A DNA stretch of 64,000 bases from a virus (IMGVR_UViG_3300032282_005588:1-64000), one strand, 5' to 3'; positions 51,043 through 55,584 are shown, counted from the stretch's first letter. Notes: generated from the letters alone by a model not told the origin. Numbers and translations: made by a program.

Positions 51043-51396
51043 ATGTTAATAATAAAAACCAAATTAGATAATTCATCAATTCATGGAATTGGGTTGTTTT
51101 CATTAGAAAAAATAGAAAAAGAACAAGTCATTGCTGAATTGAGTGAATTTGATATTAAAATTAAAAAAGATGATGTTCCACAAAAACATATTGAAATGTT
51201 TGAGTTTTATTTTGGTGTTGAAAAAGATTGTTATCAAACATATTTTGACAACATGCGTTTTATGAATCATTCAGATTATCCAAATTGTATTGACGCAAAA
51301 AATGGTTTATGTATTGCTATTAAAGATATCGAAATAGGTAAAGAACTTACTTGCGATTATTCTTTTTTTTGTGATTTATGGGAAAATATTGATTAA
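51043..51396 (+). CDS. SET-domain protein (putative lysine methyltransferase)
   Basis: SIHGIGLF, RFMNHS..PN, AIKDI..G.ELT.DY. Confidence 0.85.
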   Translation: MLIIKTKLDNSSIHGIGLFSLEKIEKEQVIAELSEFDIKIKKDDVPQKHIEMFEFYFGVEKDCYQTYFDNMRFMNHSDYPNCIDAKNGLCIAIKDIEIGKELTCDYSFFCDLWENID

Positions 51397-51421: not shown

Positions 51422-51452
51422 TAGGAATATCGAAATAAGTTTATTACCTTTG
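51422..51452 (+). promoter_or_regulatory. Bacteroidota-type promoter upstream of the cassette array
   Basis: TAGG-N19-TACCTTTG, matching the TAnnTTTG -7 consensus. Confidence 0.55.
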
Positions 51453-51465
51453 AAAAAAAATAGAT

Positions 51466-51639
51466 ATGAAAGAAATAAATTTGAAACTTGAAACAAAGAA
51501 AGTGGAGTGCGAAACCATTTCAATAAAAACTGCGATAGTGGTTGAAGAAGGAACACCAGAAATAGTTATACCGAAAAAGATTAGAAAAGAGGTTGAGAAA
51601 CTTTTGATTGATGAACTTAAAATCTCAAAACAAAAATAA
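51466..51639 (+). CDS. small hypothetical protein (not in ORF track)
   Basis: 57 aa MKEINLKLETKKVEC... between the promoter and the first TAAC site. Confidence 0.55.
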   Translation: MKEINLKLETKKVECETISIKTAIVVEEGTPEIVIPKKIRKEVEKLLIDELKISKQK

Positions 51640-51738
51640 CATTTCATATAACGGTTGCAAATAAAACATCGTTTTAATGTGTTTTATTTGTTGTTATGTT
51701 TTAGTTTTAAAAATTTTATACAAATAAAAAATAAATAT

Positions 51739-52107
51739 ATGGAAACAAAAAAAGCAGAAATAGAAATAAAAAACTTACTTGATAGTGGTTTAAGTTTTGA
51801 ATATGATTTTGATTACAATAATGTAAATAAAGTTAATTTAGCAATTAACAGAGAAGGATATTCTATAAAAGATATTATTTCAAAACTTAAACAAGGTGAG
51901 AAAATTACTTTTATGATAAATGATGGTGAAACTTGGAATGAAAAACAAGGCAATGAAAGTAAGTTTTTATACAATGAAAAATATGATGGTTCTATTTATT
52001 GGGAACACAAAACTTATGGTGATTGGGTAAGGGTTGATAGCAATATGGGTTCGTTACAAGAATGGTCAAAAGAATTAAATGATAAGTTTTGTATAAAACA
52101 ATCATAA
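51739..52107 (+). CDS. cassette A hypothetical protein
   Basis: ATG at 51739, inside unit 51652-52128. Confidence 0.65.
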   Translation: METKKAEIEIKNLLDSGLSFEYDFDYNNVNKVNLAINREGYSIKDIISKLKQGEKITFMINDGETWNEKQGNESKFLYNEKYDGSIYWEHKTYGDWVRVDSNMGSLQEWSKELNDKFCIKQS

Positions 52108-52170
52108 AATTTTTAAAATTAAACATAACGGTTGCGGATATATGAATGTAAAAAATTAATAATTAGAAAG

Positions 52171-52500
52171 ATGATAACAATACAAAATTTAACGGAATTA
52201 GGTTTTAGTGAGATACTTGATATATTCACTGGAAAACAAGTTTGGGTTTTAGGTGAAGAAGATACGGAGATATGTGGAAACCCCTGTAGATTACCAATAT
52301 TATATTACAACATAGAAACTCAAACTTGTAAAGTAGTTAGGGGTGAATTTTGTGTTGTTCAACGAGAATGTAAATCGGAGGAAGAAATTAGAAAGTTTGT
52401 AGAATCTATTAATTTTTTATTTCATATATCCGTTGTTATAAATAGTAAATTAAAATGGTATCAAAAATTGATTGGTGCATTTAAGAACAGAAGATTTTAA
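52171..52500 (+). CDS. cassette B hypothetical protein
   Basis: ATG at 52171; reads through the GTTA core (FHISVVIN). Confidence 0.65.
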   Translation: MITIQNLTELGFSEILDIFTGKQVWVLGEEDTEICGNPCRLPILYYNIETQTCKVVRGEFCVVQRECKSEEEIRKFVESINFLFHISVVINSKLKWYQKLIGAFKNRRF

Positions 52501-52569
52501 TTTATTGTTTATAACGGTTACAGATATATGTAGTTTTTTTCTTAAATTGAAACACAAAACTTAAATAAT

Positions 52570-52791
52570 ATGAACAAAGATAATAAGAACACGGAAGTTG
52601 ATAACACAGATAAAAAATTACATATATCTGATGTTATGAAACGTATTGACGAACTGATAGATGAATATAAACAAGCGAAAATTAATATAGACACGTGTAC
52701 AGATGACTTTGAATGGAATAATTTAGATAGAAGGATAAGTCATTTAAAACGCTTGTTTATAGAAATTGGTGTATGGAAATATGTTTCATAA
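52570..52791 (+). CDS. cassette C hypothetical protein
   Basis: Reads through the GTTA core (KLHISDVM); its stop codon is the TAA of TAAC. Confidence 0.65.
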   Translation: MNKDNKNTEVDNTDKKLHISDVMKRIDELIDEYKQAKINIDTCTDDFEWNNLDRRISHLKRLFIEIGVWKYVS

Positions 52792-52887
52792 CGATTGGGT
52801 ATATATGAAGTACCTAACGATAAACTTAAATAATTAGTAGAAACTTTATGAGGTATTTCATATATACCTTGTTATAAAACGTTTATT

Positions 52888-53130
52888 ATGAGATTTAAAA
52901 AATTGATTTATAAAAATTTCTTTGGAGAATACAACATTTTGATAACCATAACAGATGATGGTAAAACACCACACAGAGACACATTAATTCCAGATAGGGA
53001 AATATATAATTCACATATTTGGATTCACGATAATATTGTAAAAAAGAATCACACAAGAAAAGAAATTTTTATTCTTGATTCTATTGTGAGTGATGACGAA
53101 CTTAAAAGTGTTCTTGGAAATGTTTTATAA
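52888..53130 (+). CDS. cassette D hypothetical protein
   Basis: Its stop codon is the TAA of TAAC. Confidence 0.65.
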   Translation: MRFKKLIYKNFFGEYNILITITDDGKTPHRDTLIPDREIYNSHIWIHDNIVKKNHTRKEIFILDSIVSDDELKSVLGNVL

Positions 53131-53245
53131 CGTTTTGCACATAAGCGAAGGCACAAATTGCGTTGGCATTGTGCGGTTGGATTTGGGCTTTTGCTTATGT
53201 GCTGTTAGCAGTAGTACGGATTATTAACAAATAAATATAAATAGA

Positions 53246-53467
53246 ATGAGAATTTATCAATTAAGAACAGCAAAAGAGTTTTACAACTCAATTAAAGGAA
53301 ACTTCACAACAGAAGAATTAATGCAAATGTATGCAGAAGATGTAGCAAAAAGATTTGCTGCTGAATGTGTAAATGAGGCACTCGGTAATAAGATGGAAGT
53401 GTCAAACTCTTTGCATCACGCAATAGAAGGAAAGTACAAATCTATCATTTGGGAGAACGAAGGTTAG
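53246..53467 (+). CDS. cassette E hypothetical protein
   Basis: Lies between GTTAGCAGTAGTAC and GTATTACTGCTAAC. Confidence 0.65.
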   Translation: MRIYQLRTAKEFYNSIKGNFTTEELMQMYAEDVAKRFAAECVNEALGNKMEVSNSLHHAIEGKYKSIIWENEG

Positions 53468-53545
53468 TATTACTGCTAACGGTCGGGTATTGTTGTCTGT
53501 TGGCGACTTAAACCACAAATGTTAAATTGAAAAACAAAATTAGAT

Positions 53546-53878
53546 ATGAGTACAAAAGTTAAATCGAAGCACAAAACCGCCAATAGCAACAATACCTTGT
53601 TATCGGCTGCCTTTCTTATTAGCAAGGGCTTCAAGTTGGTAGAAGAAAGTCAAAGTCCGTTTGAAAATTTCAAAATGGATTATTTTGTAAAAGAAGGGGT
53701 ACTGCTTTTTTTCAATACGCCTGTAACCGAATGGAACGAAAATGATTTCCTTGTTGGATGTGCTGAAATGAGATGTGGGAAGTATTACGTTGTTGCTTTT
53801 AGGTGGATAAAAGAGCAAAAAGATATTATTGAAATTTACAAATCGGTAAAAGGTAAGGATTTGGATGGTGTCGGTTAA
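53546..53878 (+). CDS. cassette F hypothetical protein
   Basis: Reads through the GTTA core (NNTLLSAA). Confidence 0.65.
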   Translation: MSTKVKSKHKTANSNNTLLSAAFLISKGFKLVEESQSPFENFKMDYFVKEGVLLFFNTPVTEWNENDFLVGCAEMRCGKYYVVAFRWIKEQKDIIEIYKSVKGKDLDGVG

Positions 53879-53943
53879 GGTTGCCGCTAACTATTATATA
53901 TACGCAACTACGTTTAATCACCAATAAAATCAACGGTTTTAAT

Positions 53944-54741
53944 ATGAAAATTCTTAAAATATTTGAGGAAAAGTTAAGATATAAAAACTACTCAGATAAG
54001 AGTATTAGGTTATATATTTCATATTTGAGGCTCTTTTTAGAAAAAGAAAAGATAAAAGACCCATATCAAGTTAGAACCCAACAAATAGTCTCATTTCTTG
54101 AAAACTACCCATTCACCAGTATAAGTCAACAAAATCAATATATTGGTACTCTTAAATTATTTGCTAAATATATATTAAGTAAAAAAGACATCCATTTAAG
54201 TAAAATGGAGAGACCCAAATCGGAAAAGAAACTACCCAGAGTTATTGATGGGGAATTTATCAAAGAAAAATTATCTAAAATTGAAAATATAAAGCACAAA
54301 GCAATACTTACCTTAACTTACTCTGTTGGATTAAGAGTGTCTGAAGTAGTTAATTTAAAGATTGAAGATATTGATTCCAAAAGAATGTTGATTCATATCA
54401 AAAACGCAAAGGGTAGGAAAGATAGATTGGTTCCGTTATCACCAAATGTTCTCAATCTATTAAGAGAATATTTTAAAGAATTCAAACCGACTCAATATCT
54501 ATTTAATGGTCAAAACTCAAATCAATACTCAATAGGTAGTTGTCAACAAATTTATAAAAAATATATTGATAAAAACAGTTCAATACATACTTTAAGGCAT
54601 TCATCTTTTACAGGTTTACTAGAAAACGGAACTGATTTAAGAATAATACAAAAAATAGCGGGACATTCCTCATCCAAAACAACAGAAATTTATACTCATG
54701 TCTCCAACCAAATGCTTTCAAAAATTAATTTGGTTATTTAG
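53944..54741 (+). CDS. tyrosine recombinase, integron-integrase-like but lacking the IntI insertion
   Basis: LRYKNYS..SI..Y N-domain, RPK.EKKLP.VI, GLRVSE, KGRKDR, HTLRH, AGH, TEIYTHV; ATG at 53944 (265 aa). Confidence 0.9.
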   Translation: MKILKIFEEKLRYKNYSDKSIRLYISYLRLFLEKEKIKDPYQVRTQQIVSFLENYPFTSISQQNQYIGTLKLFAKYILSKKDIHLSKMERPKSEKKLPRVIDGEFIKEKLSKIENIKHKAILTLTYSVGLRVSEVVNLKIEDIDSKRMLIHIKNAKGRKDRLVPLSPNVLNLLREYFKEFKPTQYLFNGQNSNQYSIGSCQQIYKKYIDKNSSIHTLRHSSFTGLLENGTDLRIIQKIAGHSSSKTTEIYTHVSNQMLSKINLVI

Positions 54742-54789
54742 GATGTTTCACATACATTAACATCATAATAAATAAAAATAAAAATAAAA

Positions 54790-55584
54790 ATGATAAATCT
54801 ACAGGCTCAATTCAAAACAAAAGAAGAAATTCGTTCTTTAGCTCCAAGTATCTTTACTGAAAATGGTGCTTCAAATGTATCAGAAAATTATACACATATT
54901 CCAACATATAAAATTATTGATGATATGGAATTGTTAGGTTGGAAACCAATTGATGCAAAAGAAGTTAAAGCAAGAAAATCAATAGGATATCAAAAACACC
55001 TAATTGTATTCCGTAATGAAGATATTTTTATTAATGGAGAAGATGGAGACAATGTGTTTCCCCAAATATTACTTACAAATTCTCATGATGGGAAGAATGC
55101 ATTTACATTTACAGCAGGTCTTTTTAGAATGATATGTGAAAATGGATTAGTACTTTCAACTAAGGAATTTGAAAATATAAAAATTCGTCATTATGGTTAT
55201 AATTTTGAAGAATTGCAAAACACAATTGAAATGATGGTTAACAAACTACCCCTAACAATTGATTCTATGAATAAATTTAAACAAATTCAATTAGGTCAAG
55301 ACCAAATGATGAAGTTTGCTGAGGAAGCTGTTAAGATTAGATTTAATAATGATATTGATAATATTAAAATTGATTTAGGTGATTTACTTACTCCAACACG
55401 TATAGAAGATAGAGGGAATGATCTGTGGAGTGTATTTAATGTAGTTCAAGAAAAATTAACACATGGTGGGTTTAATTATAATATTGGTTCTAAAAATCGA
55501 AAAGCAAGAAAAATAAAAAATTTCAAACAAGATTTAGATATGAATATTAAATTACATGATTTGGCTTTAGAATATGCTAATTAA
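54790..55584 (+). CDS. DUF932-family protein
   Basis: APSIF, Y.HIPT, KHL..FR, L.NSHDG, AGLFRMICENGL, LW.VFN.VQE. Confidence 0.8.
   Translation: MINLQAQFKTKEEIRSLAPSIFTENGASNVSENYTHIPTYKIIDDMELLGWKPIDAKEVKARKSIGYQKHLIVFRNEDIFINGEDGDNVFPQILLTNSHDGKNAFTFTAGLFRMICENGLVLSTKEFENIKIRHYGYNFEELQNTIEMMVNKLPLTIDSMNKFKQIQLGQDQMMKFAEEAVKIRFNNDIDNIKIDLGDLLTPTRIEDRGNDLWSVFNVVQEKLTHGGFNYNIGSKNRKARKIKNFKQDLDMNIKLHDLALEYAN

Follow-up and report, generated by a model that had tools for sequence, protein, structure and literature searches.

Integrons are regarded as bacterial, and recently archaeal, devices that are defined by the integrase IntI, and to our knowledge phages have been known only to carry stray integron pieces. 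In classical integrons (those of IntI1 and of Vibrio cholerae IntIA (2a3v), and the sedentary chromosomal types), a mostly one-gene array is tiled from an insertion site at the 5' end of the recombinase gene, and the sites are defined by their structure (an R box with AAC/GTT, an unpaired spacer, an L box and a variable loop), with one strand that folds. These features are shared by a locus that we analyzed in a 64,000-nucleotide stretch of viral DNA (IMGVR_UViG_3300032282_005588:1-64000; hereafter the window, with positions counted from its first nucleotide), in which six hairpin-bounded units at 51652-53890 adjoin the gene of a 265-aa tyrosine recombinase. The window makes up the first 64 kb of an IMG/VR virus record of 80,082 bp (27% G+C) that was rated ∼50% complete by CheckV. 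The locus is probably a phage-borne, integron-like platform for gene capture that is run by this recombinase at TAA|C.

Other described systems resemble the locus in part. By use of IntegronFinder/HattCI, Qi et al. (2023) reported canonical attC clusters or captured fragments of bacterial integrons in 21 phages (PMC9892861); the attC-type sites in virulent phages, including a Polaribacter phage, and the methyltransferase cargo are shared with our locus, whereas that study did not describe an attI, a recombinase clade specific to phages, or an array found throughout a family. The promoter-early stem-loop (PeSL) elements of T4-type phages (PMC2839356, PMC4122927) also involve small ORFans in hyperplastic regions, stem-loop flanks, modular shuffling, and proposed circles, but they are promoter/terminator repeats exchanged by homology and lack a dedicated recombinase, an AAC/GTT core, and a fixed insertion site. 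The CTX-type integrative mobile elements exploiting Xer (IMEX) and the pdif modules of Acinetobacter plasmids have an Xer-like enzyme, provide a precedent for a core mimicked by a folded strand, and comprise site-bounded gene modules; unlike our locus, they use the host XerC/D and dif-like 28-bp sites and form no hairpin-bounded cassette arrays beside an element-encoded enzyme. Elements of the IS200/IS605 type are similar in their subterminal hairpins, cleavage at a fixed tetranucleotide, single-stranded circle intermediate, and strand specificity, but their catalyst is an HUH Y1 transposase and they form no ordered arrays beside a tyrosine recombinase. We found no description of the present system in the literature.

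The array, its recombinase and the attI-like site

Six one-gene units tile 51652-53890 on the + strand, each with the layout C-N5-X..X'-N1-2-GTTA-Y..Y'-TAA (X/X' and Y/Y' being inverted repeats), and are delimited by TAA|C boundaries at 51651|51652, 52128|52129, 52514|52515, 52791|52792, 53130|53131, 53479|53480, and 53890|53891. The initial annotation had described six consecutive units of shared architecture here; the sequence, the list of open reading frames (ORFs), and an inverted-repeat scan agreed with that description, and a purpose-written, independent chain finder returned exactly the same six units. Each unit contains a single ATG-initiated ORF on the + strand (51739-52107, 52171-52500, 52570-52791, 52888-53130, 53246-53467, and 53546-53878), none of which crosses a boundary, as had been claimed.

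The units differ in how the gene is placed relative to the two stems. Unit A (51652-52128) begins with an X hairpin at 51658-51690 (11-bp stem, loop TCGTTTTAATG), followed by GTTA at 51693 and a 27-nt Y/Y' stem around the ORF. The gene of unit B (52129-52514) lies mostly within the X loop (X from 52135, X' to 52432), with GTTA at 52435 and a short Y hairpin. In unit C (52515-52791), the ATG at 52570 and a leader ending in HISDV are located within the X module, GTTA is at 52633, and the boundary TAA is the stop codon; the same use of the boundary TAA is seen in unit D (52792-53130), which has an 18-bp X hairpin, GTTA at 52871, and its ORF in the Y loop. Unit E (53131-53479) has an X hairpin with G·T wobbles at 53137-53202 and GTTA at 53204. 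The recombinase-proximal unit F (53480-53890) has X from 53486, X' to 53596, and GTTA at 53599. All six units proposed from their stems were thus recovered, with the reservation that the Y stem of unit F is weak (12/15 matches). One claim was not borne out: removal of the six units does not leave one clean site, because the left half (..CATTTCATATAA) is the 3' end of a decayed seventh cassette (51444-51651, + strand; ORF 51466-51639, 57 aa). This cassette has kept its Y' end but lost its 5' X/Y hairpins, and it is 81% identical over 211 bp to the attI-proximal unit of a related locus (L052), where the X hairpin and the Y stem are intact.

The six-unit array exceeds chance: GTTA..TAAC stems with at least 13 matches number six in the 80-kb genome compared to 1.08 expected (Markov shuffles, maximum of 4), and five of the six are consecutive and inside the array. 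When folded as DNA, unit C gave the predicted two-stem dumbbell, with a minimum free energy of −29.9 kcal/mol (z = −4.1) for the + strand and −25.8 kcal/mol for the minus strand.

The array ends 53 nt ahead of the recombinase gene (53944-54741, + strand), which encodes an Xer/IntI-like protein with the Pfam domains Phage_integrase and N-terminal SAM-like Phage_int_SAM_4. All of the NCBIfam scores were below their cut-offs (XerA_Arch, 177 vs 220 bits; TIGR02249, the integron integrase, 148 vs 265 and in two pieces; XerD, 147 vs 330; XerC, 147 vs 335), as was that for PRK15417 (100 vs 435). The best match of solved structure was Pyrococcus XerA (4a8e). V. cholerae IntIA (IntI4; 2a3v) aligned in two pieces, with residues 176-206 of the query opposite IntI residues 180-258 (30 residues vs 78), so that in this alignment the additional domain specific to IntI (the I2 helix region near patch III) is absent. 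Because the IntI insertion is missing and all Xer/IntI family scores fall below cut-off, the protein is not a classical integron integrase; it also differs from the XerC/XerD/XerA resolvases in being phage-encoded and located beside the array. Residues R131, K156, H215, R218, H241, and Y250 are invariant in 15 relatives, in agreement with the claim of intact catalytic motifs in a non-canonical, IntI-like enzyme. It is the sole tyrosine recombinase in the 80-kb record. In a large protein collection, its relatives form at least 120 clusters at ≥77% identity, nearly all of exactly 265 aa, that are called "XerD" if named at all and derive from lake and marine metagenomes on contigs of up to 445 kb.

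The stretch between the array and the recombinase gene (53891-53943, + strand) contains an attI-like site whose core, C-TAT-T-A-TATAT, directly adjoins the last TAA; a 40-nt leader then extends to the ATG of the recombinase gene. The core, TAA|CTAT(T/C/A)(A/T)TATAT, is kept in loci with 55-100% identical recombinases, in 57 of 69 loci the last TAAC is found at −52, −53, −61, or −62 relative to the start codon of the recombinase, and the core sets ATA at the same distance from the cut as does the L box of the cassette sites. The junctions described below suggest that recombination takes place at this site.

When the minus strand is read, the elements follow one another as in a canonical integron: a divergent recombinase gene, the attI-like ..ATAG|TTA, and cassettes ending in R''(..TAAC)-spacer-L''-loop-L'-spacer-G|TTA. 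The + strand TAA|C of the initial annotation is therefore the integron G|TT, and departures from the canonical layout are limited to the enzyme, the orientation of the ORFs, and the long complementarity of the cassette ends. As in integrons, the attI-like site is abutted by the first cassette and the sites are imperfect inverted repeats with AAC/GTT cores; in contrast to integrons, there is no IntI-specific domain, there are no extrahelical L-box bases, and the ORFs do not read away from attI from a Pc promoter. Peculiar to the array are the R stem lengthened to 8-29 bp by the cassette ends, the location of the gene in either loop, a conserved 11-nt loop, sites that in some cases encode a start codon and N-terminal leader, and the phage host.

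Family-wide co-occurrence, strand asymmetry and cassette movement

A scan of IMG/VR provided 93 relatives of the recombinase, of which 80 were kept (52-86% identity, on contigs of up to 362 kb), giving 81 loci with that of the window. Because 6-kb flanks were used, array lengths are minima, and the comparisons rest mostly on metagenome assemblies (IMG/VR contigs). Tiled units were present upstream of the recombinase in 64 of the 81 loci, for a total of 289 units (median of 360 bp) and up to 15 per 6-kb flank. Across the 81 loci, GTTA-Y..Y'-TAAC stems had a density of 1.22 per kb on the upstream side of the recombinase, compared to 0.05 per kb on its downstream side, and when 367 random TAAC sites downstream of related recombinases served as control starts, 364 gave no unit and three gave one. 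There were 80 copies of the loop TCGTTTTAATG upstream of recombinases, none downstream, and none on the minus strand. In 80 loci of other viral contigs that were found by way of relatives of the neighboring DUF932 gene and that lack the recombinase, stem density was at background with one exception. The motif thus co-occurs with this recombinase clade, as the initial annotation had anticipated.

More distant relatives of the enzyme (41-48% identity) occur at chromosomal loci of Bacteroidota, 74 of 80 of which had zero units; four of the remaining six are short contigs (2-8 kb) of metagenome-assembled genomes, two of these with 63-68% identity. As a separate observation, the Bacteroidota relatives (L168-L245) often lie within ∼150 nt of a contig end, which hints at a repeated element beside them. 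At the nucleotide level, the whole window locus had no match among 50,697 phage records, and among these the X modules matched only the published uncultured 462-kb phage LR756500.1.

The family consensus of the cassette site is (A/C)TAA|C-G(G/T)(T/C)(T/C)G followed by X with ATA at +9 to +11, and X' has TA at −8/−7 ahead of an invariant GTTA(T/G). The TAAC/GTTA cores are invariant in this consensus (some arrays have CAAC in place of TAAC), the spacers are of 5 nt and 1-2 nt, and the L box is ATA/TAT. When short sites were aligned on the invariant 11-nt loop TCGTTTTAATG, compensatory changes were found in 11 of the 12 X-stem pairs, 99% of the cells were paired, none of 500 shuffles matched this covariation, and slid registers came nowhere near it. 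This loop-anchored alignment revealed no conserved bulges or extrahelical bases in the X stems; the asymmetry of the site lies instead in the 5/2-nt spacer and in G·T pairs. On the + strand, mismatches were G·T rather than A·C in both the Y stems (191 vs 9) and the X stems (275 vs 23), with the G mainly on the 5' arm. Because the stem mismatches are nearly all G·T on the + strand, that strand appears to be under selection to fold; it corresponds to the "bottom" strand in integron terms and is also the mRNA strand. The longest ORF was on the recombinase strand, pointing towards the recombinase, in 242 of 253 unique units (median of 83 aa), so the claimed orientation holds family-wide; 97 of the 242 ORFs have their start codon within the X part, and for 43 the boundary TAA serves as the stop. 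Stem quality did not vary with distance from attI (rho about 0, with the chain finder halting at decayed units).

Either hairpin may be "empty," that is, closed by the invariant 11-nt loop TCGTTTTAATG with the gene in the other loop, and one 70-nt unit has both hairpins empty; examples of empty cassettes or hairpins are L067 5559-5629, L040 units 7 and 9, and L104 6745-6779. X modules recur among loci: that of unit C is common to at least 10 loci, that of unit D to many, that of unit E is 96% identical to L007 1591-1671, and the X part of unit B (52124-52449) is 95% identical to L014 and 91% identical to L083, both with other Y parts. Such shared X parts with different Y parts hint at exchange at GTTA. 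No gene-bearing Y parts were found with different X modules, the only Y-only matches being 28-nt empty hairpins.

Whole cassettes have moved between genomes. Unit A is 99.8% identical over 477 bp to unit 1 of L038, a locus whose recombinase is only 66% identical to ours; the neighbors differ on both sides, and homology stops within TAAC-GGTTG. The intact presence of unit A in L038 upholds the register that had been proposed, in which X moves together with the downstream Y. A Logan contig from an independent lake metagenome likewise contains 51649-52130 with other flanks; no circular or deletion junction was seen in the Logan data, which are assembled contigs and as such cannot show circles, read joints, or strand. 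L070 contains two 100% identical 388-bp units, one internal and one adjoining attI; identity between their flanks is limited to TATAA at the left end and TAAC at the right. L040 contains a duplicated 149-bp unit. In L022, L023, and L025, whose backbones are otherwise 97-100% identical, a 956-bp unit (c6) adjoins attI in the first two but has an internal position in the third, and a unit that is attI-proximal in L053 is found at an internal position in both L022 and L025. The combined junctions of these transposed and duplicated units narrow the crossover to TAAC, positions −3 to +1. This position, placed from junctions rather than from cleavage chemistry, would match the G|TT (AA|C) of integrons. 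Gene order in the relatives is not fixed; arrays differ by whole units with breakpoints confined to TAAC.

One cassette has also inserted outside the array. A complete 262-bp cassette at genome positions 68118-68379, beyond the window (L003, ∼1492-1753), splits a tRNA-Met(CAT)-like gene, its insertion point separating the D arm from the anticodon stem. It consists of a short X hairpin with loop TCGTTTTAATG, GTTA-Y, one small ORF, and Y'-TAA. ARAGORN called the tRNA-Met only once the insert had been deleted in silico, and the target, ..CG|TTAGGC, fits a GTTRRRY-like secondary site. Secondary sites of this type, duplicates with an attI-proximal copy, and array-homogeneous site types (like the V. 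cholerae repeats) are further features shared with classical integrons.

Cultured phages provided evidence of a different kind. Ten Polaribacter phages of one species (Freya_1 to Freya_10, MT732463-MT732472; L164, L165, and L248-L253) have an integrase 37% identical to the window recombinase. Segments of 842, 902, and 3198 bp, present in varied combinations, distinguish Freya_1, 2, 5, 8, and 10 and account exactly for their genome lengths, and all of the segments follow (T/C)AAC at ∼50 nt upstream of the integrase ATG. The chain finder detected few regular X/Y units in this variable region, and the Freya evidence consists of the genome-to-genome junctions. The authors who described these phages did not discuss this region; in the integrase they saw an indication that the phages are temperate (PMC8776804).

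Proposed mechanism and competing explanations

The relatives, the co-occurrence, the register, and the enzyme all support the earlier proposal of mobile cassettes in an integron-like system recombined at TAA|C. We propose that the recombinase would insert and excise one-gene cassettes at TAA|C of the + strand, which is G|TTA of the minus strand, using two kinds of sites: the attI-like site 53 nt upstream of its start codon and those borne by the cassettes. In a cassette site, Y'-TAAC paired with GTTA-Y, lengthened to 8-29 bp by the two ends of the cassette, would form the R box, followed by the asymmetric unpaired spacer (5 nt vs 1-2 nt), the L-box duplex X/X' with ATA/TAT, and the loop. The recombinase would cut after TAA on the folded + strand, with the Y/Y' pairing of the cassette ends bringing both cut sites to the foot of the X hairpin; excision could then yield a single-stranded dumbbell circle, with the gene in either loop, that would be integrated again at the attI-like site. 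Stability and strand choice may here come from the long Y stem, the unequal 5/2-nt spacer, and the G·T pairs, in place of bulged bases and the IntI helix. New cassettes would enter beside the recombinase gene and be transcribed in the direction of the rest of the phage, and their cargo may represent a pool of small accessory genes, part of which would counter host defenses.

Several observations weigh against this interpretation. The case for the recombinase acting on these sites is indirect, and the folded-strand mechanism is not simply transferable from integrons because the enzyme lacks the IntI insertion and the sites lack extrahelical bases. Arrays without a full recombinase exist in L104 (5560-7900) and in LR756500.1 (∼399.9-404.3 kb, corresponding to L246 8887-13317), the latter phage having only an 88-aa fragment like the recombinase N terminus at 350 kb from the array; the link between array and enzyme is therefore not absolute, and at these arrays, which resemble bacterial clusters of attC sites lacking an integrase (CALINs), the enzyme may act in trans or be unneeded. 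The stem statistics are partly selected since the unit finder demands pairing, a bias that the controls and the loop-anchored alignment reduce but do not remove. Since the folding strand is also the coding strand of the ORFs, a folded mRNA would account for the G·T bias equally well. A single-base difference lies within the 5-nt spacer of one transposed unit, and the joins in L022, L023, and L025 could be chimeric because their neighboring sites are identical over 48-56 bp.

We consider it unlikely, though deserving of attention, that the locus is a capture machine separate from integrons and specific to phages, one that works with single-stranded DNA dumbbells and without IntI helix or bulges, whose sites supply signals, a start codon, and the shared leader to genes otherwise lacking a start, and whose empty TCGTTTTAATG hairpins are where new genes turn into cassettes. 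If this were true, cassette genesis, a long-missing step, and the origin of integrons could be read and put to the test here.

It is improbable that the hairpins are regulatory repeats of the PeSL kind, with genes shuffled by general or microhomology recombination and the recombinase an ordinary lysogeny integrase whose attP happens to adjoin a hypervariable "moron" region. The X modules are conserved types, loops included, some of which hold a start codon and upstream signals, and the 48-56-bp identical sites of L022, L023, and L025 are long enough for homologous exchange; moreover, the integrase of the Freya phages was read as a temperate sign (PMC8776804), and the T4-like PeSL cassettes, for which circles were proposed, manage without a dedicated recombinase (PMC2839356). 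Such shuffling does not account for the several junctions that share only TAAC (4-5 nt; the cassette end to attI in L070 unit 8 and in L053 unit 3, and the tRNA insertion), for the fixed, conserved core at which the array of 57 of 69 loci ends, 52-62 nt ahead of the recombinase gene, or for stems that covary while their sequence drifts, and the window phage has its own replication machinery. Consensus scans also detected no intrinsic terminators and no excess of sigma-70 promoters, Bacteroidota-type promoters being outside the scan.

Selection of the stems mainly as RNA (for mRNA stabilization, RNase III-type processing, or translational control), with mobility as a by-product, is quite improbable. 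It would suit the coincidence of folding and coding strands, on which G·T mismatches become G·U in RNA, and the facts that 97 of 242 ORFs begin in the X part, ORFs run through stems, and Y stems bracket whole ORFs. It leaves unexplained the TAAC/GTTA cores, the fixed attI-like site, the link to a single recombinase clade, the unit-precise transfer and duplication, and the empty, gene-less 70-nt units, and the array region matched no Rfam family.

Very improbable is a system of mobile folded single strands with another catalyst: the host XerC/D, which serve CTX-type phages and pdif modules, or an HUH transposase of the kind that moves IS200/IS605. Xer enzymes use folded single-stranded sites, and a TAAC| cut located 5 nt ahead of a hairpin resembles the end architecture of IS608; the recombinase-less arrays would also be accommodated. 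On the other hand, no HUH Y1 transposase (PF01797) was found in the 80-kb record, itself only ∼50% complete, and the recombinase stands at a fixed distance from the insertion point, both in the clade with 52-100% identity and in the 37% identical Freya phages. It is scarcely credible that metagenome assembly, by misjoining at repeated sites, produced a false impression of cassette shuffling, for although IMG/VR contigs are assemblies and one subgroup has repeated sites of up to 56 bp identity, the key junctions are unique on both sides and share only 4-9 nt, unit A occurs in other flanks in an independent run, and the Freya genomes are from separately sequenced isolates.

As an integron-like platform, the family would represent an abundant viral counterpart of integrons with the same logic, a simpler enzyme, and a differently built site. 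Through it, the need for the IntI-specific domain and for bulged bases, as well as the emergence of integrons, become directly testable, and the cultured Polaribacter phages are an available bench system. It would also offer a mechanism for the fast turnover of small accessory and anti-defense genes in large phages. Bacterial integrons have been reported to store defense systems; because each cassette is delimited by sequence, the phage arrays provide a handle for mining counter-defense genes.

Cargo and neighboring features

None of the proteins of the six window cassettes could be assigned by Pfam or PHROG. Of the 100 longest cassette proteins family-wide, six matched DNA methyltransferases (three Pfam families), and others matched the Tad6 Thoeris inhibitor (4.6e-41) or Lar, RNA ligase, exonuclease, and ADP-ribosyltransferase domains, whereas most were without family; these matches are consistent with an accessory function of the cargo that in part may be directed against host defense. 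No tRNA genes were found as cassette cargo. Twenty-four of 187 cassette proteins share an N-terminal leader of ∼21-28 aa that ends in (N/H)ISDV and is encoded by the X module (52570-52638 in the window), and which joins unrelated C-terminal sequence exactly at GAT-GTT-A, the GTTA core. This leader could be a by-product of site conservation or a tag for translation or targeting.

The array and recombinase are flanked by genes for a SET-domain protein (51043-51396) on one side and a DUF932 protein (54790-55584) on the other. The + strand gene set includes a DNA polymerase, DnaB-like helicase, ribonucleotide reductase, UvsX-like recombinase, exonuclease, GroEL, and tail-spike-like protein, indicating a large phage with its own replication machinery. 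The phage is of freshwater origin, and the "lytic-type" lifestyle, as judged from the replication genes, is plausible.

Two further sequence features were noted. Beyond the window, at genome positions 66479-66649, a 14-nt GTTA..TAAC inverted repeat encloses an intergenic stretch with two direct copies of AGCGCGTTAATTACTAACGC and is not cassette-like. The motif CATACATTAACATCATAATAA occurs at window positions 54745-54768 and genome positions 66635-66660, ∼25 nt ahead of the start codons of two genes, and is probably a phage promoter or leader element.

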